The position numbers were made by a program, and so were the translations under genes. From IMG/VR virus record IMGVR_UViG_3300028603_000002, positions 1 to 64,000 of that record: DNA of 64,000 bases. One strand, written 5' to 3'. Positions within the stretch are counted from its first letter, which is position 1; each line of letters starts with the position of its first letter. A model generated the notes under the pieces. The model was not told the DNA's origin. It did not search any database and worked only from the letters and a program-made list of their open reading frames with translations. Origin of the DNA: a virus (Duplodnaviria > Caudoviricetes). Of the stretch, positions 3,974-62,275 are shown in pieces.

Positions 3974-5797
3974 ATGGCAACATTAGCAGGAACATTACGA
4001 GATTTATTTTCTAGAACCATTGTGGTTCGGAAACACCGTGGACAAATACGCAATTTTGATATACACAAAGTTCAAATGGTTGGTACATTCCAACATAGCG
4101 GTGTTAAAGGAAAATTCAAGAGAGGTGGTAGTCACCTTGGTATGGGTTATGGCTGGCCAATAAACGCCTACCCTGAGATCGAGAGTAAACGTCAGAAAAT
4201 GTATATAGATTACGAACAAATGGATCGTGATGCTATTATATCTTCTGCATTAGATATTTACGCTGATGAATGTACAACTAAGAATGATGAGGGAGATGTT
4301 CTAAAAATAAAAACAGATGATGCTGAATTACAGGCAATATTATTCAATTTATTTTATGATGTATTAGATATTGATTTTAATTTGTGGGCCTGGGTTAGAA
4401 CAGCCTGTAAGTATGGTAATTGTATGCTAGGTCTTGAAATTCATGATAAGATTGGTGTAGTAAGTGCTATACCAATACATCCATCCCTATTAAGAAGAGA
4501 AGAAGGATATGATAGAGAAAATCCTGAGAGAATTAGATATGTGTTTGAAGGTACACATACACCAGGTATAACAAAAATGTATTATGAAGCATTTGAAATA
4601 ATTGATATAAGACTAATATCTGATACTAATTATATTCCTTATGGAAAATCAGTTATTGAAGGCGCAAGACAAGAATATAAGAAGTTAACATTAATGGAAG
4701 ATGCAATGTTGATTCATAGAATCATGCGCGCACCCGAGAGAAGAATATTTAAAATAGATGTAGGAGCCATACCTCCAGATGAAGTAGAAGCATATGTAGA
4801 TGAAATTGCAAATGAATTAAAGAAAGAACCTTATATAGATCCAACAACAGGAGAATATAATTTAAGGTTCAATATAATGAATGCAATTGAAGATTATTTC
4901 CTACCAGTTCGTGGATCTGATAGTGGTACAGATATAAGCACATTGGATGGATTAGGTAATGAAGGGCATATTGATGATATTGAATACATCAGAAATAAAA
5001 TGATGGCGTATCTTAAAATACCCAAAGCTTTCTTAGGATATGAAGGTGAGATTACAGGTAAGGCAGTATTAGCAGCTGAAGATATTAGATTCGCTAGAAC
5101 AATTGAAAGAATACAGAAGTTTATTATTGCTGAATTTTATAAGATAGCTCTTATACATTTAAGTGTACACGGTTATGATTCAGAAACAATTGCTAATTTT
5201 GAATTGGAATTGAATAATCCTTCAATGATCTATATGCGTCAGCGTGTAGATTTGATGAATGAACAAATGAATTTAGTTCAAGCTATTAAAGAGAATAATG
5301 TATTTGGTGATGATTACATTTACAAAAAAATCTTTAATATGACACAAGAAGAGATTGACGCAAATGAACAAGATATAATAAAAAGTAAGAAATTGGCCTT
5401 TAGAATAGAACAAATTGGAACAGAGGGCAATGATCCTGAAATAACAGGTAAATCATTTGGAACAGCACATGATATAGCAAGTATGCACATGGCAAGTAAA
5501 GGTGCTGGTGGTGGAAGTGGGGATGATGTTAAAAAGTTATATTCAGATGATGATAGAGAAAATAATGAAGGAAGACCTGAAAAGGCTGGTAGTTATGGAA
5601 GACATAAGGATCAAACATTTGGGAGAGACCCAGTGGGAGATAAAGAAGCTACTACTACAGCAGGAGAGACAAGAAGAGGTAATATACATAAACAAATGAT
5701 TAATGAAAAGAGATCAGCAGTTGCAGAAACATACAAGATAAACAAACCAGCTATACAGGAATTATTGGAATCGCTCCAAAAGGATGATTTTGAATAA
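3974..5797 (+). CDS. Portal protein (T4 gp20-like)
   Basis: LMEDAMLIHRIMRAPERRIFKIDVG, EDYFLPVRG and DDIEY...LKIP motifs. Confidence 0.95.
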   Translation: MATLAGTLRDLFSRTIVVRKHRGQIRNFDIHKVQMVGTFQHSGVKGKFKRGGSHLGMGYGWPINAYPEIESKRQKMYIDYEQMDRDAIISSALDIYADECTTKNDEGDVLKIKTDDAELQAILFNLFYDVLDIDFNLWAWVRTACKYGNCMLGLEIHDKIGVVSAIPIHPSLLRREEGYDRENPERIRYVFEGTHTPGITKMYYEAFEIIDIRLISDTNYIPYGKSVIEGARQEYKKLTLMEDAMLIHRIMRAPERRIFKIDVGAIPPDEVEAYVDEIANELKKEPYIDPTTGEYNLRFNIMNAIEDYFLPVRGSDSGTDISTLDGLGNEGHIDDIEYIRNKMMAYLKIPKAFLGYEGEITGKAVLAAEDIRFARTIERIQKFIIAEFYKIALIHLSVHGYDSETIANFELELNNPSMIYMRQRVDLMNEQMNLVQAIKENNVFGDDYIYKKIFNMTQEEIDANEQDIIKSKKLAFRIEQIGTEGNDPEITGKSFGTAHDIASMHMASKGAGGGSGDDVKKLYSDDDRENNEGRPEKAGSYGRHKDQTFGRDPVGDKEATTTAGETRRGNIHKQMINEKRSAVAETYKINKPAIQELLESLQKDDFE

Positions 5798-7842: not shown

Positions 7843-8646
7843 ATGAAATATTTAATATATAAAGTGACAAATTTAATTAATAATAAAACATACATTGGTT
7901 GTCATTCAACACAAAATATTGATGATGGATATATGGGATCTGGGAAGTTAGTATTAGCTGCAATAAAAAAATACGGCATTGAAAATTTTAAGAAAGATAT
8001 ATTATATACGTTTGATAACTATGAGACGATGATCAGGAAGGAGGAAGAACTTGTAAATGAAGAGTATATTCAGCGAAATGATACATACAATCTTTCAGTA
8101 GGCGGTGCCTTTGATTATAGAGAGGATCGCTCAAAACCAGAAAATAGTAAAAAGTTAAAAGGACGAAAATTTACCCCGGAAACAATTCGCAGGATGAGTG
8201 GAAGAGTTCCAGTGGTTAATTCTGAAGGGCAAAGATTTAAAGTTGCAACTAATGACCCACGATATTTAAGTGGAGAATTAATACATACATCAGTTGGTAG
8301 ACAATGTTCGGAAGATACGAAGCAACGAATAAGAGAGAAAGCGATTGGACGTGGACATGCCGCTGAAACTCGCGCTAAAATTAGCAAAGCGATGAAGGGA
8401 GAAAATAATCCCTTTTATGGAAAACAACATACTGACGAAACGAAAAAACAAATAAGTAAAAAGAATAAGGGACGAACTGCAGTTTTTACAGATAAACATA
8501 GAAAGAATTTAAGTATAGCAATGACGAAGAATCATTTTGGTTATATTTGGATTGTTAATTTAAAAAGTCACAAGATAAAACGGATACATCCATCTGAATT
8601 GCCGTTATATATTAATACTGGGTGGATTAAAGGAAGAAAGGTATAA
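7843..8646 (+). mobile_element. Free-standing GIY-YIG homing endonuclease with NUMOD3 repeats (Seg-like)
   Basis: LIYKVTNLINNKTYIG, YMGSG, KKYGIENFKK, YNL; repeats SEDTKQRI, AETRAKIS, NPFYGKQHTDETKKQIS. Confidence 0.88.
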
Positions 8647-42313: not shown

Positions 42314-42468
42314 CTGAATTTTTGAGACATTTCTTTGGATTGTGTGGTGAAGCACATCCAAATATATTAAATATATTCCTGTATTCAACACCAATTGTAT
42401 ATATAGGGATTAAAATAAAATCATACCTAACAAGTTTTAAACATCAAAATCATGATGAAGTTTCATAA
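42310..42468 (+). CDS. Small hypothetical protein (52 aa, MTEFLRHFFGLCGEAHP)
   Basis: ATGA overlap with thioredoxin; H..G.CGE.HP followed by a hydrophobic stretch. Confidence 0.5.
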   Translation: MTEFLRHFFGLCGEAHPNILNIFLYSTPIVYIGIKIKSYLTSFKHQNHDEVS

Positions 42469-43279
42469 GGATAAATTATTAATATCCGAAGATTTTTACA
42501 GCATCCAGGGCGAAGGGATAACAAGTGGCTATCCGTCTTATTTTATCCGTGTTGCAAATTGTAATTTGAATTGTGGCGCGACTCCATCCTTAGTAAATAA
42601 GTTTAAGAAGGGAGAAGAAACTGCTACACCTGGAAATTTTATTGGGGATCTACATAGCCAAGGAAAGGCCTCATGGACATGCGACACGATCCCTGTTTGG
42701 GCACGAGGAGAAAATCATGATTTTGATTATCTAATTAATAGGTGGAAAGAACAAGGAATATATGATGATATAGCAAGTGGTCTAATACACCTTATATGGA
42801 CTGGTGGAGAACCAACACTACCACCACACCAAACAAGCATATTTAATTTTTATAAACATTGGATTAAATTGGATCCTTCTATAAAACCATTTATTGAAAT
42901 TGAAACAAATGGTACATTAGAAATTGATAATTCATTATTTAGTTTATTGGATCAAATTAATTGCAGTCCTAAATTAGGTAATAGTGGAATGAGTCCATCA
43001 CAACGCATAGTTCCAAAAGCTATTGAATGTATAAAGGAACATTACAATTATCAATTTAAGTTTGTAATTAGTACTGAGGATGATATTTTTGAAATGTTTA
43101 ATACATTTATTGAACCATTTAGCATACCTTTAAAGAAAGTAGTTTGCATGCCTGGATTAGATGACCAAAATAATTTCCATGAACGAACTAGATTTGTTAT
43201 GGAAATGGCAAAAAAGTATAAGTTTATTGGATTAACTAGACTCCATGTTTCGGCATGGGATCGTACAACTGGCGTTTAA
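42452..43279 (+). CDS. queE: 7-carboxy-7-deazaguanine synthase (radical SAM)
   Basis: FYSIQGEG, FIR..CNLNC..(35 aa)..CDT, TGGEP, IETNGT, CSPK, KFV, RLH. Confidence 0.92.
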   Translation: MMKFHKDKLLISEDFYSIQGEGITSGYPSYFIRVANCNLNCGATPSLVNKFKKGEETATPGNFIGDLHSQGKASWTCDTIPVWARGENHDFDYLINRWKEQGIYDDIASGLIHLIWTGGEPTLPPHQTSIFNFYKHWIKLDPSIKPFIEIETNGTLEIDNSLFSLLDQINCSPKLGNSGMSPSQRIVPKAIECIKEHYNYQFKFVISTEDDIFEMFNTFIEPFSIPLKKVVCMPGLDDQNNFHERTRFVMEMAKKYKFIGLTRLHVSAWDRTTGV

Positions 43280-43500
43280 TGGTTATCTTATCATGGATTG
43301 CCACTATACTAATCCTCGCAGGTTGTATTGCAAATGCTAGAAAACATCATGTTTTGGCGGTAGTATTATGGACACTTGGTGATATATCATGGATAATTTT
43401 TGATATTTACATTGCTAATTATAGTCACATTGTATTAAGTTCAGCAATAATATTCATAAATTTATATGCTATAAAGAATTTGAAGAACGATACAAACTAG
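43279..43500 (+). CDS. Three-TM membrane protein A (PnuC/SemiSWEET half-transporter-like)
   Basis: ATG 43279 overlaps the queE TAA; three hydrophobic helices; paralogue of the next ORF. Confidence 0.55.
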   Translation: MVILSWIATILILAGCIANARKHHVLAVVLWTLGDISWIIFDIYIANYSHIVLSSAIIFINLYAIKNLKNDTN

Positions 43501-43506
43501 TATTTT

Positions 43507-43749
43507 ATGACTTTATCTACTTTAATGATAATATTTTCTTGGGCTGCAACTGCTCTTGTTTTAATTGCTTTTATAGTTAATGCCCGCAAATATCATAGAC
43601 TTGCAGTGTGGTTGTGGATAATTGGAGATATATTATGGATAATTTTTGATATTTACATTGCTAATTTTAGCCATTTGGTATTAAGTTCTGTAATAATTTT
43701 TATAAATTTATATGCAATATACAACTTAAAAAAAAATGGCCCGAGTTAA
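43507..43749 (+). CDS. Three-TM membrane protein B (paralogue of A)
   Basis: Shares SW.AT.L.L...NARK.H.LAV.LW..GDI.WIIFDIYIAN.SH.VLSS.IIFINLYAI with A. Confidence 0.55.
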   Translation: MTLSTLMIIFSWAATALVLIAFIVNARKYHRLAVWLWIIGDILWIIFDIYIANFSHLVLSSVIIFINLYAIYNLKKNGPS

Positions 43750-44206
43750 TGTCGGTATTGATCCCAAATATTTAGCAGACCAACACTTGATTGCAGAATC
43801 AGTGGAAATAATAATGATTACAGGTGGATTGAAGAAAAATAATTTTAAAATTAAAAGTGCGATACCTCCCTTCTTTAAAATGGGGAAAGGACATATAAAC
43901 TTTTTTAAAAATAAAATTGTTTATTTGAAGAGAAGGTTAGATGAAGTAAATAAAGAAATGGATAATAGAGGGTTTAAAAATAGTACTAATATTGATTTGG
44001 ATGAATATCCTGAAGATTTATTAAATGATTGGGAACCTTCTAAAATTGATTCAGAAATTATTAGAAGGCGAGTTGTTGAAAGATTAATTACTAGAATAAA
44101 GGGTAAACCTGGTTCTAAATTTTATAGATATAATCGAGTATTAATAGGAGATAAAATAGATATCTTCGCAAATGAATTAAATAATTCTAAGTTGTATTTC
44201 GTATGA
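43736..44206 (+). CDS. denV: Pyrimidine-dimer DNA glycosylase (T4 endonuclease V-like)
   Basis: MARVN...LADQHLIAE..EI, IP..FKMGKGHINFF.NK..YL.RR....EM..RGF. Confidence 0.85.
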   Translation: MARVNVGIDPKYLADQHLIAESVEIIMITGGLKKNNFKIKSAIPPFFKMGKGHINFFKNKIVYLKRRLDEVNKEMDNRGFKNSTNIDLDEYPEDLLNDWEPSKIDSEIIRRRVVERLITRIKGKPGSKFYRYNRVLIGDKIDIFANELNNSKLYFV

Positions 44207-44823
44207 TGTTAAAAACAGCAAATTCAAATATAATTCTTGATGATCAAGAACGCAATAAAATGATATTAGATGCGGCAGAAGCATATGGTAATTTTTTAGA
44301 TGCCTTAAAAATAGATTGGAGAAACGACCCTAATTCAGCAGACACTCCATTAAGAGTAGCTAAATCATATGTTAATGATTTAATTGCGGGTTGTTATACA
44401 AACCCACCAAAAATTACAAGATTTCCAAATGATCAACATTATAATGGTATAGTATTTTGCGGTGATATAGATGTAAAATCTTTGTGCAGTCATCATAACC
44501 TCCCATTTTTTGGTAAGGCTTATGTTGCATACATCCCAGATGAAAATGGAACAGTAATTGGTTTAAGTAAATTGAACCGAGTAGTAGAATGGTATGCAAG
44601 AAGACCACAAATACAAGAACAATTAACAACTCAAATACATGATCAATTGAATGATGTCATTTCGGATAATGCAGGTATTGCAGTCATGATTAAAGCAAAG
44701 CATATGTGTTCATGTTTACGGGGGGTGAAACATGACAGTTATATGGTTACTAGTAAATTGAGCGGGGCATTTTATAATGATGCATCTGCCAAAGGTGAAT
44801 TTTTTGAATTTATTAAATCTTAA
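44203..44823 (+). CDS. folE: GTP cyclohydrolase I
   Basis: DTPLRVAK, SLCSHHNLPFFG, GLSKLNR, RRPQIQEQLT, HMCSCLRGV. Confidence 0.96.
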   Translation: MMLKTANSNIILDDQERNKMILDAAEAYGNFLDALKIDWRNDPNSADTPLRVAKSYVNDLIAGCYTNPPKITRFPNDQHYNGIVFCGDIDVKSLCSHHNLPFFGKAYVAYIPDENGTVIGLSKLNRVVEWYARRPQIQEQLTTQIHDQLNDVISDNAGIAVMIKAKHMCSCLRGVKHDSYMVTSKLSGAFYNDASAKGEFFEFIKS

Positions 44824-44826
44824 ACA

Positions 44827-45489
44827 ATGAATAATAAATCAAATAAAATTTCTGTGATATTGTTTACAGGTGGGATGGATTCAACAGTTGTTGCACACCA
44901 ATCTAAAGAAAAGGGTAATGATGTTTATTGTTTAACATTGTCGCAGGGTGGTTTAAATTCAATTGAAGTTGAGAAATCAAAACAACTATGTAGCCATCTG
45001 GGGGTAAAAAGTATAATATATGATATGTCTTCATATTCAGACTTAGTTGATAAACAAGTCACTAATTCATGTGGGTATAGTGAGGGAAATGAAGATGATA
45101 TTGTTAATAATTTTATTCCTAATCGCAATGCAATATTTATACTTTTAGGACATTCTCTATGCCAGAATATAATGAGAAGGAAGTCTGTAGATAAGGGTGA
45201 GGTATTGTTAGGTATGTTAAGCAGCGACCCGGATTATCCTGATTCAAGGCTAGAATTTTTTCAGGGAATGACACGTGTATTAAATATGGGGTCTTTAGAA
45301 GGCACTATTGAAGTAGGTGTTCCTTTATGGGATTACTCAAAATATGAAGTCTATAAGTATTTAAAAGAAAATAAAATACCAATTGAAATGACGTGGAGTT
45401 GTAATGAAAATGAACCTATTCCATGTGGTAAATGTTATGGGTGTACACAAAGAAAAAGACTTAATAAACAATATAATATTCAAATATGA
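44827..45489 (+). CDS. queC: QueC-family ATPase, paralogue 1
   Basis: TGGMDS, FIPNRN, YPDSR, TWSC...CGKCYGC Zn site. Confidence 0.88.
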   Translation: MNNKSNKISVILFTGGMDSTVVAHQSKEKGNDVYCLTLSQGGLNSIEVEKSKQLCSHLGVKSIIYDMSSYSDLVDKQVTNSCGYSEGNEDDIVNNFIPNRNAIFILLGHSLCQNIMRRKSVDKGEVLLGMLSSDPDYPDSRLEFFQGMTRVLNMGSLEGTIEVGVPLWDYSKYEVYKYLKENKIPIEMTWSCNENEPIPCGKCYGCTQRKRLNKQYNIQI

Positions 45490-46148
45490 AAAAGTGCATT
45501 TTATTAGCTTCAGGTGGTTTAGATACTCAAATATCTATGGCAATGTTAAATGAAGATGGATATGACATACTACCTATCTATTTTGATTATGGGCAACAAA
45601 CATCAAAAAAAGAAATTCCTGCATTAAAAAAATATTCCAACAGCATATTAGGTAAAGACCCAGAAATAAGGAAATTGGATAATTATACGAGTGTATTGGA
45701 GAATATGTGGGCATTGTCTGGTGATGTTTCAGAGACATATAATGATAAAGAAAAAATATTCATCCCAGGTAGAAATATCATGTTTTTGTTATTTTCAGCT
45801 GTGATTGGATATTATGATAATCGTTATGAATTAGTATTATCATTGCATAAATCAGATACAATTTCTGGAGATTGTAAAATTGATTTTACAGAAGCATTTC
45901 AACATGCTTTAACATTAGGTATGAGCACACCCAAATATCCAGTAGAATATAAAATCATCGCCCCTTTAAAAGATATGGAGAAATGGGAGGCAATACAGGT
46001 TGGTGCTTCATTAGGTATTGATTTTTCTGAGTCGTGGAGTTGTGATGATAGCAAAGAAGAACATTGCGGAGTATGTCAACAATGTACTGAACGCAAAAAA
46101 ATGTTTAATAAAGCGAATATTACAGATCCTACAATTTATTTACAATGA
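45486..46148 (+). CDS. queC: QueC-family ATPase, paralogue 2 (divergent active-site loop)
   Basis: SGGLDT, FDYGQ, FIPGRN, SGDCK in place of YPDCR, SWSC...CGVCQQC. Confidence 0.85.
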   Translation: MKKCILLASGGLDTQISMAMLNEDGYDILPIYFDYGQQTSKKEIPALKKYSNSILGKDPEIRKLDNYTSVLENMWALSGDVSETYNDKEKIFIPGRNIMFLLFSAVIGYYDNRYELVLSLHKSDTISGDCKIDFTEAFQHALTLGMSTPKYPVEYKIIAPLKDMEKWEAIQVGASLGIDFSESWSCDDSKEEHCGVCQQCTERKKMFNKANITDPTIYLQ

Positions 46149-47113
46149 ATTTAAAGGATAAGTTAGATGAATTTACTTATTTAAATAAGACCGTTAAAAA
46201 TTCTGAAGTTTTTAAGTTGGGTGTTACTGAGTATAATTTATACGCAAAATTTGAATTTCAATTATTTGGTGGTAGTATTAAGGCCCGAGCTGCATATGAA
46301 ATATTGGAAGATGGTATTAATAGGGGTGTAATAAATGAAAATACAACTATAATAGAATCATCTTCTGGTAATTTTGCAATTGCAATGTCGATGTTTTGTA
46401 AAAAATTAGGTTTGAAATTTATTGCGGTTGTTGATATATTAACTAATCCTAATGCTATTAAATTTTTGAAGTTTTTTGCTCATGAGGTTGTTGTTATTAA
46501 CGAAAGAGATGATAGGGGAGGTTTTTTATTAAATCGACTTAAATATATCAAAGAGTATACATCAAACAATAAAAATATATATTGGACAAATCAATATGAA
46601 AATGAATGCAATTATCTTGCACATTACAAATATACCGCGGAAGAAATAATAGAACAAGTACCTAATTTAGATATCATATTCATTGGGGCAGGAACTTGCG
46701 GGACGTTATCAGGGGTATCAAGAAAATTAAAAGAATACAATCCTAAAATCAAGGTTGTTGCAGTTGATGTTGAGGGTTCTTCAATATTTGGGTTGATACC
46801 TAAAACTCGTTTTATCCCAGGTATGGCTTCAAGTATAAAACCACCTTTATTGAATAGAGCTTTGTATGATGAGATAATGATTATAAGCGAGGAAGAAATA
46901 ATTTATTCTTGTTATAGCTTACTTGAAAAACATATGATATTTGGTGGTGGGTCTTGTGGTGCAGTTTTTGCTGCAATTGAAAGATCATTTATATCATCGC
47001 GAATCCCATTAAATTCAAATGTATTATTTTTATGTCCTGACGGTGGTCGGTTTTATATTGATACTATTTATAACAAAGAGTGGGTAAAAGAAACATATAA
47101 TATAGAAATATGA
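46145..47113 (+). CDS. sbnA: SbnA-like PLP enzyme (2,3-diaminopropionate biosynthesis; cysteine synthase fold)
   Basis: YAK.E...GGSIKAR, ESSSGN, GGFLLNR, YWTNQY.N, GTCGT, GSSIFG..RFIPG, PDGGRFYIDTIYN.EW; paired with an SbnB-like gene. Confidence 0.85.
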   Translation: MNLKDKLDEFTYLNKTVKNSEVFKLGVTEYNLYAKFEFQLFGGSIKARAAYEILEDGINRGVINENTTIIESSSGNFAIAMSMFCKKLGLKFIAVVDILTNPNAIKFLKFFAHEVVVINERDDRGGFLLNRLKYIKEYTSNNKNIYWTNQYENECNYLAHYKYTAEEIIEQVPNLDIIFIGAGTCGTLSGVSRKLKEYNPKIKVVAVDVEGSSIFGLIPKTRFIPGMASSIKPPLLNRALYDEIMIISEEEIIYSCYSLLEKHMIFGGGSCGAVFAAIERSFISSRIPLNSNVLFLCPDGGRFYIDTIYNKEWVKETYNIEI

Positions 47114-47985
47114 AAGTTATTACAGAATTACCAGAATATAGTTGGAGTGAATTGATAGATATAATTGGAATGGTAGTTGCAGAAAATGATTTCTGTCAAC
47201 CGATTAAACCATATTTATCATTTCCAGATCCAAGCGCAAGAATTATTGCAATGCCTGCCGCAGTTGGTGGTTCGATAAGAAAAGCAGGTATAAAGTGGAT
47301 ATCTAGTTTCCCAGAAAATCATAATAAGGGATTACCACGAGCTCATTCCGTTTTAATTTTAAATGATTATGACACTGGTGTTCCATTGATTACATTTAAT
47401 ACAGCGGAATTAAGTGCTTTGCGTACCGCCGCTGTAACGGGTTATTTTTTACACCAGTATATGATGTTTAATGAAGATTTAAACTCCCTGGGTATTATTG
47501 GTTATGGTCCTATTGGGCAATGTCATGAAAGTATGATACAGACTATTTTTCCATTTGTGAAAATAATGATTTGTGATCAAAAACATATTACAAATTCAAA
47601 ATGGGAAACATATACAAACTATAAAAATATGATTGGGAATGTTGATGGTATTATTACATGTACTGCAGGATCTGATTCTAATCATTATATTGAAGAAATA
47701 ACTGATAATATAAAAGTATTTTTAAATATATCATTGAGAGATATGAAAATATCAAAATCAAATTTTGAGTATTTTGATAGGTGGGTAGTTGATTCGTGGG
47801 ATGAAGTTAATCGACATGGTACTGATTTTTCTTTATTTGAAAAGAATTACAAATTTAACAATGAACAATGGTCTACACTCTTTGACATGGATGAAACATT
47901 TTTGAAAGGTAAAATATGTTTTAATCCAATGGGTATGGCATGTTTTGACATTGCAATTGCATCATATTTTTTAAATAAATTATAG
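47110..47985 (+). CDS. sbnB: SbnB-like ornithine cyclodeaminase/mu-crystallin family enzyme
   Basis: QPIKPYL, RIIAMPA, GIKWISSFPEN...GLPRA..VLILND..TG.P, SALRTAA, GYGPIG (NAD-binding), ISLRD, FNPMGMA.FDIA. Confidence 0.85.
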   Translation: MKVITELPEYSWSELIDIIGMVVAENDFCQPIKPYLSFPDPSARIIAMPAAVGGSIRKAGIKWISSFPENHNKGLPRAHSVLILNDYDTGVPLITFNTAELSALRTAAVTGYFLHQYMMFNEDLNSLGIIGYGPIGQCHESMIQTIFPFVKIMICDQKHITNSKWETYTNYKNMIGNVDGIITCTAGSDSNHYIEEITDNIKVFLNISLRDMKISKSNFEYFDRWVVDSWDEVNRHGTDFSLFEKNYKFNNEQWSTLFDMDETFLKGKICFNPMGMACFDIAIASYFLNKL

Positions 47986-47990
47986 CAATA

Positions 47991-49166
47991 ATGGATAAAA
48001 AATTTATATATATACCATCTTTAAGTGCAGGTGGATATAAACAATATTTAATAGAAGATAAAATATTAGTGCACTCGGGAATCAACTCAAGATTTTATTC
48101 AGATGATTTTCCTGAAAATTTTAGATACAAAAATTTTCTATTAACTGCCGGACACTTGTATAAAAAGAAAAATATACGAGAAGAAATGGGTTTAGAAGAT
48201 TCATTTGTATTTGGTGATTCAGGTGGTTTCCAGTTTGCCTCTGGTGCAAAGGTCTTTGATAAAACTATAAGGCATGAATTATTTACTTTTTTGGAAGGAA
48301 ATTGTGATATTGCAGCAAATTTAGATATTCCGCCTAAAATGACTTTAGCTTCAAAATTTGATGAATGTCTAGAATTATCAATTGATAATTTTAAATATTT
48401 CTATGATAATCAAAGTGGCAAAGTTAAATACTTAAATATCTTGCATGGAACAACACCGGAACAATTTATCCATTGGTATGATGGTATAAAGGATTTTGAA
48501 TTTTCTGGATGGGCAACTGGTACTGCATTTAAACTTGTTAATTGGATGTATACATTACATACATTGATATCTAACAGAGAATTTGAAAAAATAAGCTGTG
48601 AATATTTTCATATTTTTGGTGTTTCATCACCCTTTGATTTTTTAATAGCAGCAAAGATTCAGGAATGTATTAACAAGTATCATGATGGTAGAGTAACAAT
48701 TACAGTAGATTCAAGTTCACCTGGGTTAGGTGCTGTGTATGGATACTATTATCATCATGTTGATTATAATAAACAATCATTTAAGAAAATGAGGTTTTTT
48801 AAAGGGAACGATATTGTGTACCCAGATGCACCATTACCATGTACAATTGGTTGTCCTGCATGCAAGAATTCCAGCATTAAACATTTTAATACATATGATA
48901 CAATGATGACAAATCATGTTGTATTACACAATACACTTATTTTTGCCAAAGCCGCCGCAGATGCAAATGATTTAATAAAAGTACCAAGTGAGGTATTAGA
49001 AGTGTTAGTTGGTAGAAACATAATAAAAATATTGAAAAGTATTGAATTAATGTTTGTAGAAAATAGTTTGCATGTATATAATAAGTTTAAACAATTATAT
49101 TTGAAGTATGGTGGTGACCATGAAAGTGAGCAAGAAGTAAAACATAATTTTTTTAATTTTAATTGA
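47991..49166 (+). CDS. dpdA: TGT-family transglycosylase (DpdA-like; inserts 7-deazaguanine into DNA)
   Basis: DSGGFQ, LDIPP, ILHG, HIFG, DSSS, Zn site C..GC..C...HN; clustered with que genes and overlapping polB. Confidence 0.85.
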   Translation: MDKKFIYIPSLSAGGYKQYLIEDKILVHSGINSRFYSDDFPENFRYKNFLLTAGHLYKKKNIREEMGLEDSFVFGDSGGFQFASGAKVFDKTIRHELFTFLEGNCDIAANLDIPPKMTLASKFDECLELSIDNFKYFYDNQSGKVKYLNILHGTTPEQFIHWYDGIKDFEFSGWATGTAFKLVNWMYTLHTLISNREFEKISCEYFHIFGVSSPFDFLIAAKIQECINKYHDGRVTITVDSSSPGLGAVYGYYYHHVDYNKQSFKKMRFFKGNDIVYPDAPLPCTIGCPACKNSSIKHFNTYDTMMTNHVVLHNTLIFAKAAADANDLIKVPSEVLEVLVGRNIIKILKSIELMFVENSLHVYNKFKQLYLKYGGDHESEQEVKHNFFNFN

Positions 49167-54395: not shown

Positions 54396-54758
54396 ATGGA
54401 AACAATAGATAAACCATGGGGCTTATATGAGGCAATAATTGCTATTGATAATATCAATCAATTTACATTGAAGCGAATAATAATAGATCCTGAAGAACAT
54501 CCATCGGATCAAAAACATGCACATAGAAATGAAATTTGGATGGTATATGCTGGAGTAGGCACATTGATTACTGAATCAGATGCAGGAAAAAATGTAATAA
54601 TAATTCGTGAAGGAGATGTTGTTCATATTGAAAAAAATACTTGGCATTTAATTATTAGCAGTGGGGATGAACCATTGGAATTCTTTGAAATACAATATGG
54701 TGAGCTGTGCGCCGAGGAGGATATAACGAGAAGATTTGACAAATATGAAAGAGAATAG
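54396..54758 (+). CDS. Cupin, type II phosphomannose isomerase C-terminal-like
   Basis: KPWG.YE, QKHAHRNEIW, WHLI, EIQYG..EEDI.R..D.Y.R. Confidence 0.85.
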   Translation: METIDKPWGLYEAIIAIDNINQFTLKRIIIDPEEHPSDQKHAHRNEIWMVYAGVGTLITESDAGKNVIIIREGDVVHIEKNTWHLIISSGDEPLEFFEIQYGELCAEEDITRRFDKYERE

Positions 54759-56340
54759 AATTAAGAGAGTATTCATACCAACTGCAGGGATAGGTAGTAG
54801 GTTAGGTGAATTGACTATGGTGTTTAACAAGTGTATGTTACCATATAGAGGCAGACCTGCTATACATGCTATTATCCAAGCATATCCTGGTGAATGTGAA
54901 TTTATAATTGCATTGGGTTATGGTGGAGATATAGTGATGGATTATCTAATTACAGTATTCCCTGATAAAAAATTTAAATTTATTTTTATTAAAAAATATG
55001 ACCCATCAGAAGGTGGTAGTTTATTAGAAACATTATATCAATGCAGAGAACATTTCAACCAACCATTTATATTCCACGCAGCAGATAGTATTACACCCAG
55101 AGGATTTAACGTAAATAGTAAACATAATGTCATATTAACCAGTGAAAAATTAAATATTGATAAGTATACGAAATTAACAGTTGGTAAAAGTAAAGTAAAA
55201 GAGATTAAGGTTGATAGATATGATATAGACACTTATATGATAGGTGTTTATTCAATCATAGATTATAAGAAATTTGTTAAAGGCATCAATTATAATTACA
55301 AACATATTACTAATACAAGTGACACAGCTGTATTAGATTATATGATGAATAAAAAATGTAAGTTTGAATATTTACATATCGGTACTGGGTTTTGGGTTGA
55401 TTATGGAGATCCAATACAGGTAGAAAAACATATGAAAGATAATGTATTAGGTCTAAATACATTACCTAAAAAGAATCAAATGATATATCGATATAAAGAT
55501 CAAATTATTAAAGTATTTTCAGAACCATGGAAAAGTAGAAAGTTATATGAAACGTATAAAGTTTTGAAACCTAGTGGATTAATGGTGGATGTAGTCAATT
55601 ATTCAAAATATACATTTATAACAAAATATGCTCCAGGAATTACATTAAGAAAACATTTAGAAGGGAATTTAAATGATATATCTTTCTATAATGTTTTGGA
55701 AAAATTTCATGCTGATAATATAATCAAAAGTACACCTAAACAGAAAAGAGAATTCGTTGAGAAATTCTATATTGAAAAAACAAGAAATCGAGTCGCTGAA
55801 TTTTTAAGAACTGATCCGGTGAATGATATCGTATTAGATGATAAATTTTCGATTAATGGTATTGAAATAGATAGCATAACAGATCTGTTAGATAGGTTAT
55901 TCGAATATTTACGAACAATGGATTTATTTAATGTAACTTGTGGAAAAGTACATGGAGATTTAGTCTTAGATAATATCATTATTAATGGTAATGATATTAA
56001 ATTTATTGATTGGAGAGAAGAAACAATAGAAGGAGTACATGGTTACGGCGATCAAGTATATGATATAGCAAAATTATTACATAGTTGTTGTTTTGATCAT
56101 AATAATTTTAATGATTCACATCTTTTATTAGTAAAGAATCAACATGTAATAGTTCAAATGGTAGGACATAACTCTAAATTAATGAATATCTTAGATAATC
56201 TCCCATTGAAATACTTGCATATTTTAGTTGGGTTGATTTGGTTAAATATGTCACCATTGCATGGTAGGGAATATGGAAGATATTTATTCTTTGCTGGATT
56301 ACATAGAATAGCATTTTGGTTAAACGAAGACGATGAATAG
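54745..56340 (+). CDS. Fusion of an NTP-transferase domain and a choline/aminoglycoside-kinase-like domain
   Basis: N-terminal IPTAGIGSRL...NKCML and W.DYG; C-terminal HGDLVLDNII, FIDWR, GDQVYDIAKL. Confidence 0.8.
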   Translation: MKENRIKRVFIPTAGIGSRLGELTMVFNKCMLPYRGRPAIHAIIQAYPGECEFIIALGYGGDIVMDYLITVFPDKKFKFIFIKKYDPSEGGSLLETLYQCREHFNQPFIFHAADSITPRGFNVNSKHNVILTSEKLNIDKYTKLTVGKSKVKEIKVDRYDIDTYMIGVYSIIDYKKFVKGINYNYKHITNTSDTAVLDYMMNKKCKFEYLHIGTGFWVDYGDPIQVEKHMKDNVLGLNTLPKKNQMIYRYKDQIIKVFSEPWKSRKLYETYKVLKPSGLMVDVVNYSKYTFITKYAPGITLRKHLEGNLNDISFYNVLEKFHADNIIKSTPKQKREFVEKFYIEKTRNRVAEFLRTDPVNDIVLDDKFSINGIEIDSITDLLDRLFEYLRTMDLFNVTCGKVHGDLVLDNIIINGNDIKFIDWREETIEGVHGYGDQVYDIAKLLHSCCFDHNNFNDSHLLLVKNQHVIVQMVGHNSKLMNILDNLPLKYLHILVGLIWLNMSPLHGREYGRYLFFAGLHRIAFWLNEDDE

Positions 56341-56860
56341 AACATTACAAAAAGCGTGCGAAGTATCATTGCATAATGATTTCACACATGTACTTGAATT
56401 TGGAGTATATAAAGGTGGCACATTAAAACAACTATCTAAATTTTATAATTCAACTGTACATGGATTTGATTCTTTTGAAGGTTTGCCTGAAGATTGGGTT
56501 GGTACTAACCACAAGAAAGGAGGCATGAGTGCTGGTGGAAGAATACCTGAAATACCAAATTGTAAGATCTGGAAGGGTTGGTTTGAGAATACTATTCCAG
56601 AATACTTAAAAGAGTATAAAGGTCCAATTAAACTATTGCATATTGATTGTGATTTATATAGTAGCACAAAAACAATATTAGAACTATTAAATGATAATAT
56701 AGTTAGTGGTACAATATTATGTTTTGATGAATGGTATTATAATCATAATCCAAAGTACAAAGACCACGAACAGAAAGCATTTTTTGAATGGATAGGAGAT
56801 AGGGAATTTGTATTGGAATTACCAATTGAAGATGAACGACAAATAGTACATATATTATGA
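56333..56860 (+). CDS. TylF/MycF-type sugar O-methyltransferase
   Basis: LEFGVYKGGT, GFDSFEGLPEDW, KGWF..T, HIDCDLYSST, FDE. Confidence 0.88.
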   Translation: MNRTLQKACEVSLHNDFTHVLEFGVYKGGTLKQLSKFYNSTVHGFDSFEGLPEDWVGTNHKKGGMSAGGRIPEIPNCKIWKGWFENTIPEYLKEYKGPIKLLHIDCDLYSSTKTILELLNDNIVSGTILCFDEWYYNHNPKYKDHEQKAFFEWIGDREFVLELPIEDERQIVHIL

Positions 56861-57840
56861 TATATATAGGATTGATGAACCCTATAATAACTAGGGCAGT
56901 TTTAAATTTCAATAAAAAACACAATGAATATCTAGGCTTGATAATCAGTACATCCCAGTTTAGTCATTGTGGAGGATATTATCCATCAAAATATGATTTT
57001 AATTACACCTTGAAATTAATAAAAGATATTGATTCACATATTAGAATTGGCAGAGATCATTATGATTCATTGGATAATGATTTACATTGCAGCGATATTG
57101 GAATAGTTGATTATATACATATTGATCCAATTTATGACAGCAATGGCAAGAAAAATGATATCATCGGTTATACGTCAGATGTTATTTATATGATGAACGA
57201 ACTAGTAAAATTTGATAAGAAGATTAAATTTGAAATCGGCACTGAACAAAGATTATTGAAATTTAGTATACAAGATTTTGATTATTTCTTAAGTAATATT
57301 CAACAAGTATACGGAGAGGATAAGTTAGAGTACATAGTAGTTCAAAGCAATGAAGATTTATCATATAACAATTTATTGACACAACAAGCTCCTGAAATTA
57401 CTTACGATGATTCTGCTAGATATCATCAAATGATAACAATAGCTAAAGAATACTATCCCAATGTTAAATTGAAACAACACAACCAAGATTTTGTCCCTGC
57501 CAATGATATAAGAAATAAATTGAACCTTAATTTTGGTGGATCTAATTTAGATGCTATAAATTTAGGTCCACAAATAGCTCAAATGTTTAATGAGATTGTG
57601 TATGAGGAATTAAACCCAACCCGGAGAATAGAAGTAGTTAGAAGAATACTTAAGAATGAAGCATTTAAAAAGTGGTGTACATATAATAATATAATGGATA
57701 CAACACCAGAAAAAATGTTTACTTTATTTGCACATTATATTTATAAGGAATTAGATTATTCAATAGATCACAATAGCATATTTGAAAAATTTTATCCTGA
57801 ATTTGAAAAATTTATTTTAGAAAGATTGCCTGGAGGATAA
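56857..57840 (+). CDS. GatZ/KbaZ (tagatose-phosphate epimerase/aldolase)-like TIM barrel
   Basis: SQ...GGY, RDH, IHIDP, FEIGTE, VVQS, KQHNQDF, AINLGPQ. Confidence 0.65.
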   Translation: MIYIGLMNPIITRAVLNFNKKHNEYLGLIISTSQFSHCGGYYPSKYDFNYTLKLIKDIDSHIRIGRDHYDSLDNDLHCSDIGIVDYIHIDPIYDSNGKKNDIIGYTSDVIYMMNELVKFDKKIKFEIGTEQRLLKFSIQDFDYFLSNIQQVYGEDKLEYIVVQSNEDLSYNNLLTQQAPEITYDDSARYHQMITIAKEYYPNVKLKQHNQDFVPANDIRNKLNLNFGGSNLDAINLGPQIAQMFNEIVYEELNPTRRIEVVRRILKNEAFKKWCTYNNIMDTTPEKMFTLFAHYIYKELDYSIDHNSIFEKFYPEFEKFILERLPGG

Positions 57841-58232: not shown

Positions 58233-58457
58233 ATGGACATGAAGAAGGGAAGATTATACAAAAAGAAAAAAGAGCTGAATGATGCTTATTATATTTTCCT
58301 TGGAGATAGCGGTTTACCTGAGTTAGGGACGTTTTTATGTGTTGTCCCTATTAATGATACCCGATTAAGAATAGTCTCGGTAGAACTAAGGAAAGCAAGT
58401 GAAATGAAGATTGTATCAGAAGAAGAATTTCGTAACTATATAGATGTATCTTGGTAA
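58233..58457 (+). CDS. Hypothetical protein
   Basis: 74 aa; TAATG overlap with queD. Confidence 0.45.
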   Translation: MDMKKGRLYKKKKELNDAYYIFLGDSGLPELGTFLCVVPINDTRLRIVSVELRKASEMKIVSEEEFRNYIDVSW

Positions 58458-59011
58458 TGTGGTTAATTGATAAAACATTTGAATTTGATTATGGTCATAG
58501 AGTTTGGACTCAAAAACTAAATTCTGACTTTAGTATTGATAATAGATGTGTATGTAGACATTTACACGGTCACCGAGGAAAAGTACATGTTTATTTAAAA
58601 TCAGATACTTTAGATGAAACTGGGATGGTTACTGATTTTAAACATTTGAATTGGTTTAAGAAATTCTTAGATGATGTGTTGGATCATAAAATGATTCTTG
58701 ATATGGATGATCCAACATTATTTTTATTGTATTCATTAGCTACTGAACATTATTTAATAGAAAATAAAGAATTTAATTATTATACAGTAGATATAGCAAA
58801 ATTAGAAACTGATTTAGGTGATACTTTTACTGATGCTGAAATGGAATTATATGAGGGATTAGTAATAGTTAACTTTGTACCGACATCAGAAAACTTAGCA
58901 AAGTGGTTAGCAGAAATAACGTCTAAGAAAATGAAAGAAATGGGGGTGAATGTAAGTCATATTGAATTCTTTGAAACTCCAAAAAGTAGAAGTACATATT
59001 ATATTGATTAA
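58457..59011 (+). CDS. queD: 6-carboxy-5,6,7,8-tetrahydropterin synthase
   Basis: FDYGHR, CRHLHGH, GMVTDF, LDH, PTSENLA, ETP; long internal insertion. Confidence 0.92.
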   Translation: MWLIDKTFEFDYGHRVWTQKLNSDFSIDNRCVCRHLHGHRGKVHVYLKSDTLDETGMVTDFKHLNWFKKFLDDVLDHKMILDMDDPTLFLLYSLATEHYLIENKEFNYYTVDIAKLETDLGDTFTDAEMELYEGLVIVNFVPTSENLAKWLAEITSKKMKEMGVNVSHIEFFETPKSRSTYYID

Positions 59012-60600: not shown

Positions 60601-60756
60601 ATGAAAAAAAGTTCTAAAAAAAGATGGTGGTTGAATACAAAACCATTGTACAAAGAATTTGGAGAAAGTAAATTCAAAAGAGTTAAGAGAAGCGAAACAA
60701 TTCGACCTTCAGATAGAATTGAAAGGTTATTGAAAAAGGAGTATGCCAAGTCATAA
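60601..60756 (+). CDS. Small basic ORF (51 aa)
   Basis: MKKSSKKRWWLNTKP...; fills the gap and overlaps the next gene. Confidence 0.35.
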   Translation: MKKSSKKRWWLNTKPLYKEFGESKFKRVKRSETIRPSDRIERLLKKEYAKS

Positions 60757-61708
60757 TAAGCTGTTGAAGAAAATTGAGGAGATAAAGAATATTGGTTATA
60801 ACAAGGATGAAAAAATAGTTAGTTACAGCCAATATAGTAAATATCAAACATGTCCTCATAGATGGAAGCTAGAATATATAGACAAACATAAGTTTCCGGA
60901 TCCAAATATCAATTTAGTATTTGGGACTGCAATGCACGAAGTAATACAATTCTATTTACATAATGTTTATAATAAGAGTGTTAAATATGCAGACGAGAAT
61001 ATAGATCTTGAAAATCTATTAATGTTCTCAATGAAGAAAAATTACCAAAAAGAGTTTGATAAGAATGGTATAAATTTTTCAACGATGGAGGAGGTAGTTG
61101 ATTATTATGAAGATGGTTGTGCAATATTACATTTCTTTAAAAATAACAGGTCGAATTATTTCAATTCAAGAAAGTTAGAATATATTGGAATTGAAATTCC
61201 TCTTATATATACACCTATAGAAAGTCTACCAAATGTTAAATTACGCGCATATTTAGATTTGATATTTTATGATAAGGCTGCAAAACGGTATAAGATCATA
61301 GATATAAAGACTAGCAAATCTGGATGGAATAAATGGCAGAAAAAAGATAAAAGCAAAACTGATCAAGTATTATTGTATAAATATTATTTTTCTAAATTAT
61401 ATGATATTGATATTCAAGATGTAGATGTAGAGTTTTTTATAGTTAGAAGAAAAATAGAAACAGACTACGATTTTCCATTAAAAAGAATACAAGAATTTAA
61501 ACCCGCAGATGGTTCAATATCAATTAATAAATTTGTAAGGAATTTCGAGAAGTTTATTACAAATAGTTTTACAACGGAGGGATATAATAAAGAAGCTGAA
61601 TATCCTGCAGTTTGTGGTGAAAAGGGATGGAATTGTACATTTTGTCCATTTAATGAAAAAGAGAATTTATGCCCAAAAAGTAAGAGAATAACCAGCATTT
61701 CAAATTGA
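60743..61708 (+). CDS. PD-(D/E)xK exonuclease (RecB/Cas4-like, 4-Cys)
   Basis: SYSQ..Y..CP, FGTAMHE, YLDL, IIDIKTS, QVLLY, CTFCPF...C. Confidence 0.88.
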   Translation: MPSHNKLLKKIEEIKNIGYNKDEKIVSYSQYSKYQTCPHRWKLEYIDKHKFPDPNINLVFGTAMHEVIQFYLHNVYNKSVKYADENIDLENLLMFSMKKNYQKEFDKNGINFSTMEEVVDYYEDGCAILHFFKNNRSNYFNSRKLEYIGIEIPLIYTPIESLPNVKLRAYLDLIFYDKAAKRYKIIDIKTSKSGWNKWQKKDKSKTDQVLLYKYYFSKLYDIDIQDVDVEFFIVRRKIETDYDFPLKRIQEFKPADGSISINKFVRNFEKFITNSFTTEGYNKEAEYPAVCGEKGWNCTFCPFNEKENLCPKSKRITSISN

Positions 61709-61741
61709 TTTTTGTATATATATTATTGAAAATAAAGTTAC

Positions 61742-62275
61742 ATGAGGAATAAAGTTGTATGTGAATATAATTGTTTAATGTTAGATGTTGAATTAAACAA
61801 TTGGTCTAATTGGGAAGATATAATAACACCAACCGACATCTACATTTCTGATACCATTCCTGGTTTAGAACCAACTCCACATATCACTCTTCTGCATGGA
61901 ATTGAACCTAATACACGATTAAATGAATTTGGTCATATACTACCACGAGCAAATGAATATAATGTCGAAGTAGGTGGATTACAATATTTTAACAAGTCTA
62001 CATATGATGTATTATTTTTAAAAGTAAAATGTTCTTTAATTAATGAAGTTAATTTAAAATTAAAAGAAACAATAAAATACCACCCCACCTTCCCAGTATA
62101 TACTCCACATATAACAATAGCATATTTAAAACCTGGAAAGGCAAATAAGTATGTATATAGCATACCTATAGTTAATAAACATATAAAGGCAATAAATTAT
62201 ACATATTCAACAACAAAAAATAGACCATACAGATTTAAGGAGTTTTATGGAACAACAACTACCAAAGTTAATTAA
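61742..62275 (+). CDS. 2H phosphoesterase, Acb1/T4 gp57B-like
   Basis: Two HxT motifs, PHITLLHG and PHITIAYLKPG. Confidence 0.75.
   Translation: MRNKVVCEYNCLMLDVELNNWSNWEDIITPTDIYISDTIPGLEPTPHITLLHGIEPNTRLNEFGHILPRANEYNVEVGGLQYFNKSTYDVLFLKVKCSLINEVNLKLKETIKYHPTFPVYTPHITIAYLKPGKANKYVYSIPIVNKHIKAINYTYSTTKNRPYRFKEFYGTTTTKVN

Follow-up and report, generated by a model that had tools for sequence, protein, structure and literature searches.

FolE, QueD and QueE together give 7-carboxy-7-deazaguanine (CDG). The described phage systems for 7-deazaguanine modification of DNA share these three genes, a QueC gene and a gene similar to those of tRNA-guanine transglycosylases (TGT), placed by the replication genes, and the bases of the systems that use DpdA are preQ0, ADG, G+, preQ1, mdPreQ1, fdPreQ1, DG and CDG (Hutinet 2019, Cui 2023). 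A locus of this kind, with two QueC genes (positions 44827-46148), is analyzed here in a stretch of 64,000 nucleotides (the window) that begins the complete genome, 171,908 bp in length, of an uncultured phage (Caudoviricetes; IMG/VR record IMGVR_UViG_3300028603_000002) with direct terminal repeats at its ends. The module is tight, in the order FolE–QueC1–QueC2–SbnA–SbnB–DpdA-like–PolB, with QueE upstream and QueD downstream of this core. It differs from the known phage systems in having SbnA, SbnB and a second QueC, whereas their tailoring enzymes (QueF, Gat-QueC, ArcS, DpdL/M/N) were not seen in this phage, QueF being the one searched for genome-wide. The comparisons described below suggest that the module makes a new 7-deazaguanine base, bearing an amino acid, for the phage DNA, and it is plausible that it represents a variant of the known modification systems with a new base as its product.

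QueC-1 (44827..45489) and QueC-2 (45486..46148), both on the + strand as are all the long open reading frames (ORFs) of the window, start with ATG and match Pfam PF06508 over almost their whole length (132.3 and 115.8 bits, respectively; cut-off 22), and they are the only two QueC matches in the whole genome. Like canonical QueC, both have the full-length domain, the PP-loop, the Arg of the VPxRN motif, the Asp of the YPDC motif and the four-Cys zinc site, and among solved structures both are matched best by canonical QueC proteins (3BL5 and 2PG3). The original prediction had described them as two 220-amino-acid QueC ORFs that keep PxRN and the four-Cys zinc site and are otherwise highly diverged; all the motifs it quoted are found in the translations (TGGMDS, IPNRN, YPDSR and C-x7-C-x2-C-x2-C in QueC-1; SGGLDT, IPGRN, SGDCK and C-x7-C-x2-C-x2-C in QueC-2), and the divergence is confirmed by a BLASTP identity of 26% over 215 amino acids (E 9e-17). 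Both copies pass the motif test for the PP-loop and the zinc site, TGGMDS and SGGLDT being conservative Ser/Thr swaps of SGGxDS.

The differences from canonical QueC are concentrated at residues of known importance (numbered here as in E. coli QueC), which were counted in an alignment of the families of both copies (five QueC-1 and eight QueC-2 sequences) with 123 other QueC representatives. The Y35 column has Gln in the whole QueC-1 family (5/5) and Tyr in 119 of the 123 other QueCs, and QueC-2 retains this Tyr. Ser-Gly replaces Tyr131-Pro132 in every member of the QueC-2 family (SGDC for YPDC), so that the Y131 column, Tyr or Phe in 105/123 of the others, is Ser in 8/8. At Y189, the QueC-1 family has Asn (5/5) and the QueC-2 family Asp (8/8), while Tyr is found in 111 of the other QueCs and Asn or Asp in none of the 123. 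Apart from these changes, the QueC-1 family keeps Tyr131, Asp133 and Arg99, with Ser at C134, and the QueC-2 family keeps Tyr35, Gln37, Arg99, Asp133 and Cys134. In the structures of Cap9 and QatC, two other members of the QueC family, the Tyr and also the Arg make stacking contacts with the deazaguanine, whose N1/N2 are read by the Asp, and in E. coli QueC the substitutions Y35A, R99A, Y131A and Y189A each abolish function (Libby et al. 2026, PMC13329287). Neither copy looks, from its sequence, like a canonical preQ0 synthase, because residues essential in E. coli are replaced and because both fall below the cut-off of the NCBIfam QueC equivalog TIGR00364 (122.4 bits for QueC-1 and 98.0 for QueC-2; cut-off 150.3).

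The losses of the two copies are complementary, QueC-1 being without Y35 but keeping Y131 and D133, and QueC-2 keeping Y35 without Y131. Together they could do the work of one canonical QueC, with ADG or preQ0 as the product, either as a heterodimer or with one half-reaction each, the L-2,3-diaminopropionate (Dap) expected from SbnA and SbnB then being used by another enzyme or for another purpose. The PP-loop, Arg99, Asp133 and the zinc site are kept in both copies, the pair is always found together in this phage lineage, and the published structures of QueC and Cap9 are dimeric, all of which would suit such an arrangement. It is nevertheless unlikely: Y189, essential in E. coli, is absent from both copies, which are not sisters in phylogenetic trees; the deazaguanine set of an unrelated phage (G001, described below) is complete with only one QueC, which is of the QueC-2 type; and SbnA and SbnB would be left without a user, as no other ligase candidate was found among the cluster ORFs scanned.

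The relatives of each copy, which are 49-65% identical to it, keep the motifs of that copy. QueC-1 relatives (P0010-12 and P0139) are 49-56% identical, and the closest metagenomic relatives are 61-65% identical for QueC-2, 53-56% for QueC-1 and 53-56% for SbnA. Near-identical contigs from other metagenomes (a small sample at low depth) differ from the window at six places within the pair, five synonymous and one a Leu→Ile change, with zero indels. The invariant patterns of the two families and the mostly synonymous differences indicate that both genes are under selection and that their active sites have been remodelled in different ways, and the decay of one copy, which the original prediction had named as a finding that would speak against it, was not seen. 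The term "paralogues", used there, holds only in the sense of family: in both FastTree and IQ-TREE, an isolated clade (support 100) unites QueC-1 with its four relatives, whereas QueC-2 nests in a different clade (P0140-43, P0146, P0156, P0163 and others; support 97), here called xGD after the motif that stands in place of YPDC, most members of which are also without the stacking Tyr. Forcing both copies into one clade costs 41 log-likelihood units, with a p value of 0.052 in the approximately unbiased (AU) test, a borderline result short of formal rejection. QueC-1 and QueC-2 thus do not look like a recent tandem duplication and would be non-redundant ATP pyrophosphatases of the QueC family with different ancestry.

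This conservation also bears on the idea that one QueC is simply the ADG or preQ0 synthase and the other a regulatory or unrelated paralogue, with Dap serving a non-DNA use, for example as a host-takeover metabolite. Phage QueCs do vary at their motifs and yet give known bases (the QueC of phage CP220 has FPDC and YGS, and CP220 carries dADG), and a provirus with xGD-type QueCs and no SbnA (G002, below) would be in line with it. However, each family is conserved at its own motifs, the variants in other metagenomes are mostly synonymous, two unrelated phages have the gene order xGD-QueC→SbnA→SbnB, viral collections otherwise contain next to no intact SbnA (in IMG/VR there is one broken copy), and no non-ribosomal peptide synthetase (NRPS) or siderophore genes are adjacent, all of which makes a spare copy very unlikely.

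SbnA converts O-phospho-L-serine and L-Glu to N-(1-amino-1-carboxyl-2-ethyl)-glutamic acid (ACEGA), the first step to Dap, and SbnB converts ACEGA to L-Dap and 2-oxoglutarate. In the staphyloferrin B pathway and in those of Dap-containing antibiotics (CmnB/CmnK), the genes belong to the same families as those of the window and are adjacent as well, although in the window they are found in a phage, with no siderophore or NRPS genes adjacent, with a change at S185 of SbnA and with a diverged SbnB. The SbnA-type pyridoxal phosphate enzyme of the window (46145..47113) passes the equivalog TIGR03945 (354.2 bits; cut-off 349.95), and its best match in the Protein Data Bank (PDB) is Staphylococcus aureus SbnA (215 bits), with CmnB next. 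The residues K47, R132, Q151 and Y152 are kept, while the phage clade has Gly in place of S185; the functions of these residues follow PMC12414870, where Ser185 is implicated in substrate selection. The SbnB-like NAD-dependent dehydrogenase (47110..47985) has S. aureus SbnB as its best PDB match (94.8 bits, against 49.5 for the next family) and keeps the GxGxxG motif, so that both assignments, made from sequence, are credible. The use of a deazaguanine amine (e.g., preQ1) as the nucleophile of SbnA was considered and set aside, as the genome lacks QueF and the usual two-step route to Dap is favoured by the presence of SbnB. Among the isolated phages of INPHARED no credible SbnA was found, the matches resembling bacterial DNA, and when IMG/VR was scanned with an SbnA profile, the one copy obtained was frameshifted, lay close to the end of its contig without a QueC and is likely host DNA; the absence is weak, since the scan also missed G001.

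An amine other than ammonia has a precedent in the QueC family. Cap9, from type IV CBASS, is a ligase of CDG to a protein N-terminus, in which CDG is adenylated and then attacked by a non-ammonia amine (the protein N-terminus) following the QueC mechanism, and its structure (PDB 9NTO) ranks third among the solved-structure matches of both copies. In the signature of Cap9, CE(x)6C, an acidic residue stands at the place of the canonical Tyr189, where QueC-2 likewise has Asp, and the Cap9 spacing YxQ(x)5E is present in QueC-2 too, although it is also found in some QueCs of the YPDC type. In contrast to Cap9, which has about 185 amino acids, the window copies have 220, and their neighbours are FolE, SbnA, SbnB and the DpdA-like gene, with no CD-NTase, Cap10 or defence context; in addition, Cap9 retains the stacking Tyr that is missing from QueC-2, and the acceptor proposed here is a free amino acid. 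Membership of the Cap9 group failed on neighbours and size, the PADLOC 'QueC' matches (102 and 72 bits) being no better than those to Pfam QueC. QatC, of the QatABCD system, is another QueC-family protein in which the Tyr/Asp motif is altered, and this has been read as a changed substrate, but QatC has Thr in place of both Tyr and Asp and carries long N- and C-terminal extensions, whereas the window copies keep the Asp. QueC-2 reaches 21 bits with the QatC model NF041925 (cut-off 280), QueC-1 does not match it, and no QatA, QatB or QatD is found among the neighbours. Gat-QueC was rejected as well, since both ORFs have 220 amino acids and are bounded by overlapping neighbours, and the match to PHROG 10428 spans the QueC part only (no search for longer homologues was made).

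The link between an xGD-type QueC and the Dap genes is not confined to the window phage. A scan of IMG/VR with the xGD alignment gave 80 loci, and with earlier viral and metagenome loci 96 QueC ORFs were parsed: in 92 the motif is [YF]PDC or differs from it at one residue, a larger deviation is seen in two (L036 and L045), and the remaining two are of the xGD type. One of the latter (L034) is linked to SbnA. It belongs to G001, an 88-kb phage of 55% GC (about 30% in the window) that encodes gp32, a RecA/UvsX-type recombinase and a PolA-UDG polymerase and has a run of deazaguanine genes in the order QueE–FolE–DpdA-like–PolA. The sole QueC of this record is of the xGD type (HAGDC), and its stop abuts the start of an SbnA (274 bits with TIGR03945, with all four key residues present), which is followed by an SbnB-like gene, an alanine/serine racemase, ThyA and QueD. 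The order xGD-QueC→SbnA→SbnB is therefore common to the window phage and an unrelated one, although their proteins are only 35% identical, and the one QueC of G001 argues that the link to Dap does not require a second copy. In the SbnA tree, G001 lies outside the clade of the window phage on a long branch; independent acquisition is not concluded from this position. As a side observation, the family-A polymerase of G001 (L130 425-2782 (-)), which has an N-terminal uracil-DNA glycosylase (UDG) domain, adjoins the DpdA-like gene, and the racemase (L034 11153-12310) after SbnB hints at a D-amino acid in the G001 version of the pathway. The provirus G002 (L043, a 93-kb record) has two QueC-like genes of the xGD type (4670-5368 and 7962-8630, with ISGDE and TCGDC) spaced by ORFs of 578 and 142 amino acids without assigned family; it may represent another amine-ligating deazaguanine system with a different partner.

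Closer to the window phage, relatives of QueC-1, QueC-2 and SbnA share identical values for the number of contigs in which they were seen and for the longest contig, and a recurrence of this trio on at least four other metagenomic contigs was deduced from these shared values. Longest contigs of 163,672 and 104,989 bp are shared by QueC-1, QueC-2 and SbnA, one of 10,302 bp by QueC-2 and SbnA, one of 3,207 bp by QueC-1 and QueC-2, and one of 2,288 bp by QueC-2 and a fragment of SbnA. The last two are too short for spacing between the genes, which would consequently be adjacent, provided that they are on the same contig. Single-protein scans of IMG/VR with QueC-2 or SbnA as query found nothing, and the QueC-2 family profile found one distant QueC in IMG/VR, only canonical QueCs of the GYPDC type (none with SbnA) in the JGI metagenomes, and four canonical bacterial QueCs (three from Marinicella and one from a gammaproteobacterial metagenome-assembled genome) among the GTDB genomes. 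Low-depth, near-identical contigs covering 44203-49166 were observed in landfill, soil and sludge metagenomes of several studies, which shows that the phage is widespread and not a one-off assembly.

Within the window, ATGA overlaps are found at the QueC-1/QueC-2, QueC-2/SbnA and SbnA/SbnB junctions, and from these the four genes are taken to be translationally coupled. The preferred reading is that FolE, QueD and QueE supply CDG and that SbnA and SbnB, as judged from their family membership, supply L-Dap, which QueC-2 would ligate to CDG in place of ammonia. QueC-2 is the best candidate for a CDG:Dap ligase: it would adenylate the carboxylate of CDG, and an amine of Dap would then attack instead of ammonia to give a Dap-amide of 7-deazaguanine, a reaction for which Cap9 is the sole precedent. 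QueC-1, which keeps the Tyr, Asp and Arg that recognise the deazaguanine, would carry out another ATP-dependent step, for which the candidates are the activation of the new amide and a parallel product of the ADG or preQ0 type. This is the best explanation at hand, a tentative one whose chance of being right is put at somewhat under even, and it is supported by the xGD QueC adjoining SbnA–SbnB in two unrelated phages. The suggestion in the original prediction that one copy accepts a larger amine such as Dap thus gains comparative support from the SbnA equivalog and the SbnB-like gene directly after QueC-2, the recurrence of the trio, G001 and the Cap9 precedent. A more elaborate chemistry would have the QueC half-reactions both split and redirected, with QueC-2 making the CDG–Dap amide, QueC-1 adenylating this secondary amide and the neighbouring free amine of Dap closing a cyclic amidine (an imidazoline-carboxylate), so that the DpdA-like enzyme would insert an unprecedented heterocycle-bearing base; a cyclic amidine is envisaged because a secondary amide cannot give a nitrile, and this version is a long shot, the least probable of the explanations considered.

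The enzyme proposed to insert the base into the phage DNA, presumably for restriction evasion and with the ligation occurring either before or after insertion, is a DpdA/TGT-like candidate DNA guanine transglycosylase of 391 amino acids (47991..49166). In the ESM Atlas it resembles viral TGT-like and DpdA clusters (feature similarity of 0.95-0.96, structural TM values of 0.68-0.77), and in tblastn it matches Vibrio phage proteins annotated as 'TGT domain-containing' (E 1e-5). It carries GDSGGFQ and a C-x3-C-x2-C cluster, which are TGT hallmarks, and a homologue lies at the equivalent place in G001, the gene being coupled to that of the polymerase in both phages. It has no Pfam, PADLOC or PDB sequence match and no BLASTP similarity to CGPG_00065 (DpdA3) of phage phiST (E 0.43), and no DpdA subfamily was assigned to it; a single-sequence AlphaFold2 model was discarded for its low confidence (pLDDT 38). 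Genome-wide, neither QueF nor a Pfam TGT or DpdA match was found, and no GATase domain was seen among the cluster ORFs scanned, so that none of the known routes leading to preQ1 or archaeosine can be recognised.

The same steps could take place in another order, with the DpdA-like enzyme inserting CDG or a simple deazaguanine and one or both QueC-like proteins then acting with Dap on the base in DNA, which is a variant of the preferred reading. In favour of this order, enzymes of the DpdA3 type may insert CDG (Cui et al. 2023), the coupling of the DpdA-like and polymerase genes is common to both phages, and the site of QueC-2, from which the Tyr that covers the free base by stacking is missing, could admit a larger substrate. 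On the other hand, no QueC-family enzyme acting on DNA was found in the literature examined, both copies have 220 amino acids with no extra domain, and nothing in the data separates the two orders; tailoring at the level of DNA is considered distinctly unlikely.

Several points weigh against the ligation of Dap to CDG by QueC-2. The product, the amine and the form of the substrate (free base, nucleotide or DNA) are all inferred, and the role of QueC-1 is not narrowed to one step. The SbnA of the window has Gly at S185, and the SbnB-like protein fails its equivalog TIGR03944 (198.8 bits; cut-off 326.9), which is still its top family. The presence of xGD QueCs in G002, in whose 93-kb record there is no SbnA, means that the xGD clade is not strictly tied to Dap, and G001 is 83% complete, so that a second QueC could have been missed. 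Finally, the co-occurrence on other contigs comes from matching contig values and not from read sequence, and the DpdA-like protein is a candidate named from language-model and structure similarity together with its motifs. In the full-text literature searched, which leaves many subscription journals outside its coverage, no paper was found in which 7-deazaguanine, phage and SbnA appear together, or 7-deazaguanine with ornithine cyclodeaminase or cysteine synthase; no paper among the matches listed links deazaguanine and diaminopropionate, and neither SbnA nor ornithine cyclodeaminase is named in a QueC-family survey of 2026, which describes clusters without this one.

The remaining genes around the module belong partly to the same pathway and partly to others, with QueE, FolE and QueD again on the + strand. 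The QueE-like radical-SAM enzyme for CDG synthesis (42452..43279) matches PHROG 2076 'QueE-like radical SAM domain' (E 5.7e-42) and gives partial matches to the NCBIfam QueE models, each under its cut-off. It is followed by two tandem paralogous membrane ORFs of about 80 amino acids (43255-43500 and 43507-43749), located between QueE and DenV, each of which resembles three transmembrane helices; one of them has a sub-threshold match (E 0.003) to the C-terminal half of Imp-YgjV, and they may be a half-size SemiSWEET/PnuC-like transporter pair for a precursor. A pyrimidine-dimer DNA glycosylase similar to DenV of T4 (43736-44206; PF03013, 48.8 bits) lies within the deazaguanine operon, and its stop overlaps the start of FolE. 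FolE itself (44203..44823), GTP cyclohydrolase I and step 1 of the deazaguanine pathway, matches PF01227 (166 bits) and NF006826 (162.1 bits; cut-off 162), and its DNA resembles that of Cellulophaga phage phiST. Downstream, the start of PolB (from 49163) is overlapped by the stop of the DpdA-like gene, and PolB is followed by the clamp and the clamp loader. Between the clamp loader and QueD there is a sugar-modification block (54396-57840); its genes encode a cupin of the mannose-6-phosphate-isomerase type, a TylF-like O-methyltransferase and a large protein that matches a kinase weakly, and the block could serve the tailoring of DNA or of virion glycans. QueD, a 6-carboxytetrahydropterin synthase (58451..59011), matches PF01242 at 99.8 bits, above the cut-off, and further on (60743-62275) a PD-(D/E)XK nuclease (68.6 bits) and then a 2'-5' RNA ligase/LigT-like protein are encoded.

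The module counts six to eight small genes, and in its two QueCs the residues recently found to be essential in E. coli QueC (Y35, Y131 and Y189) can be studied in natural variants. Phage DNA is known to contain eight 7-deazaguanine derivatives, none of which is known to bear an amino acid. If the preferred reading is true, the window phage would thus have a new class of DNA hypermodification, with the zwitterionic side chain of Dap in the major groove, and QueC-2 would be the first CDG ligase of the QueC family for a small-molecule amine, between QueC, which uses ammonia, and Cap9, which uses a protein N-terminus. It would also be the first function for the Tyr-less xGD clade of QueCs, and SbnA and SbnB would be a case in which a pathway for a building block of siderophores and antibiotics has been recruited by viruses.

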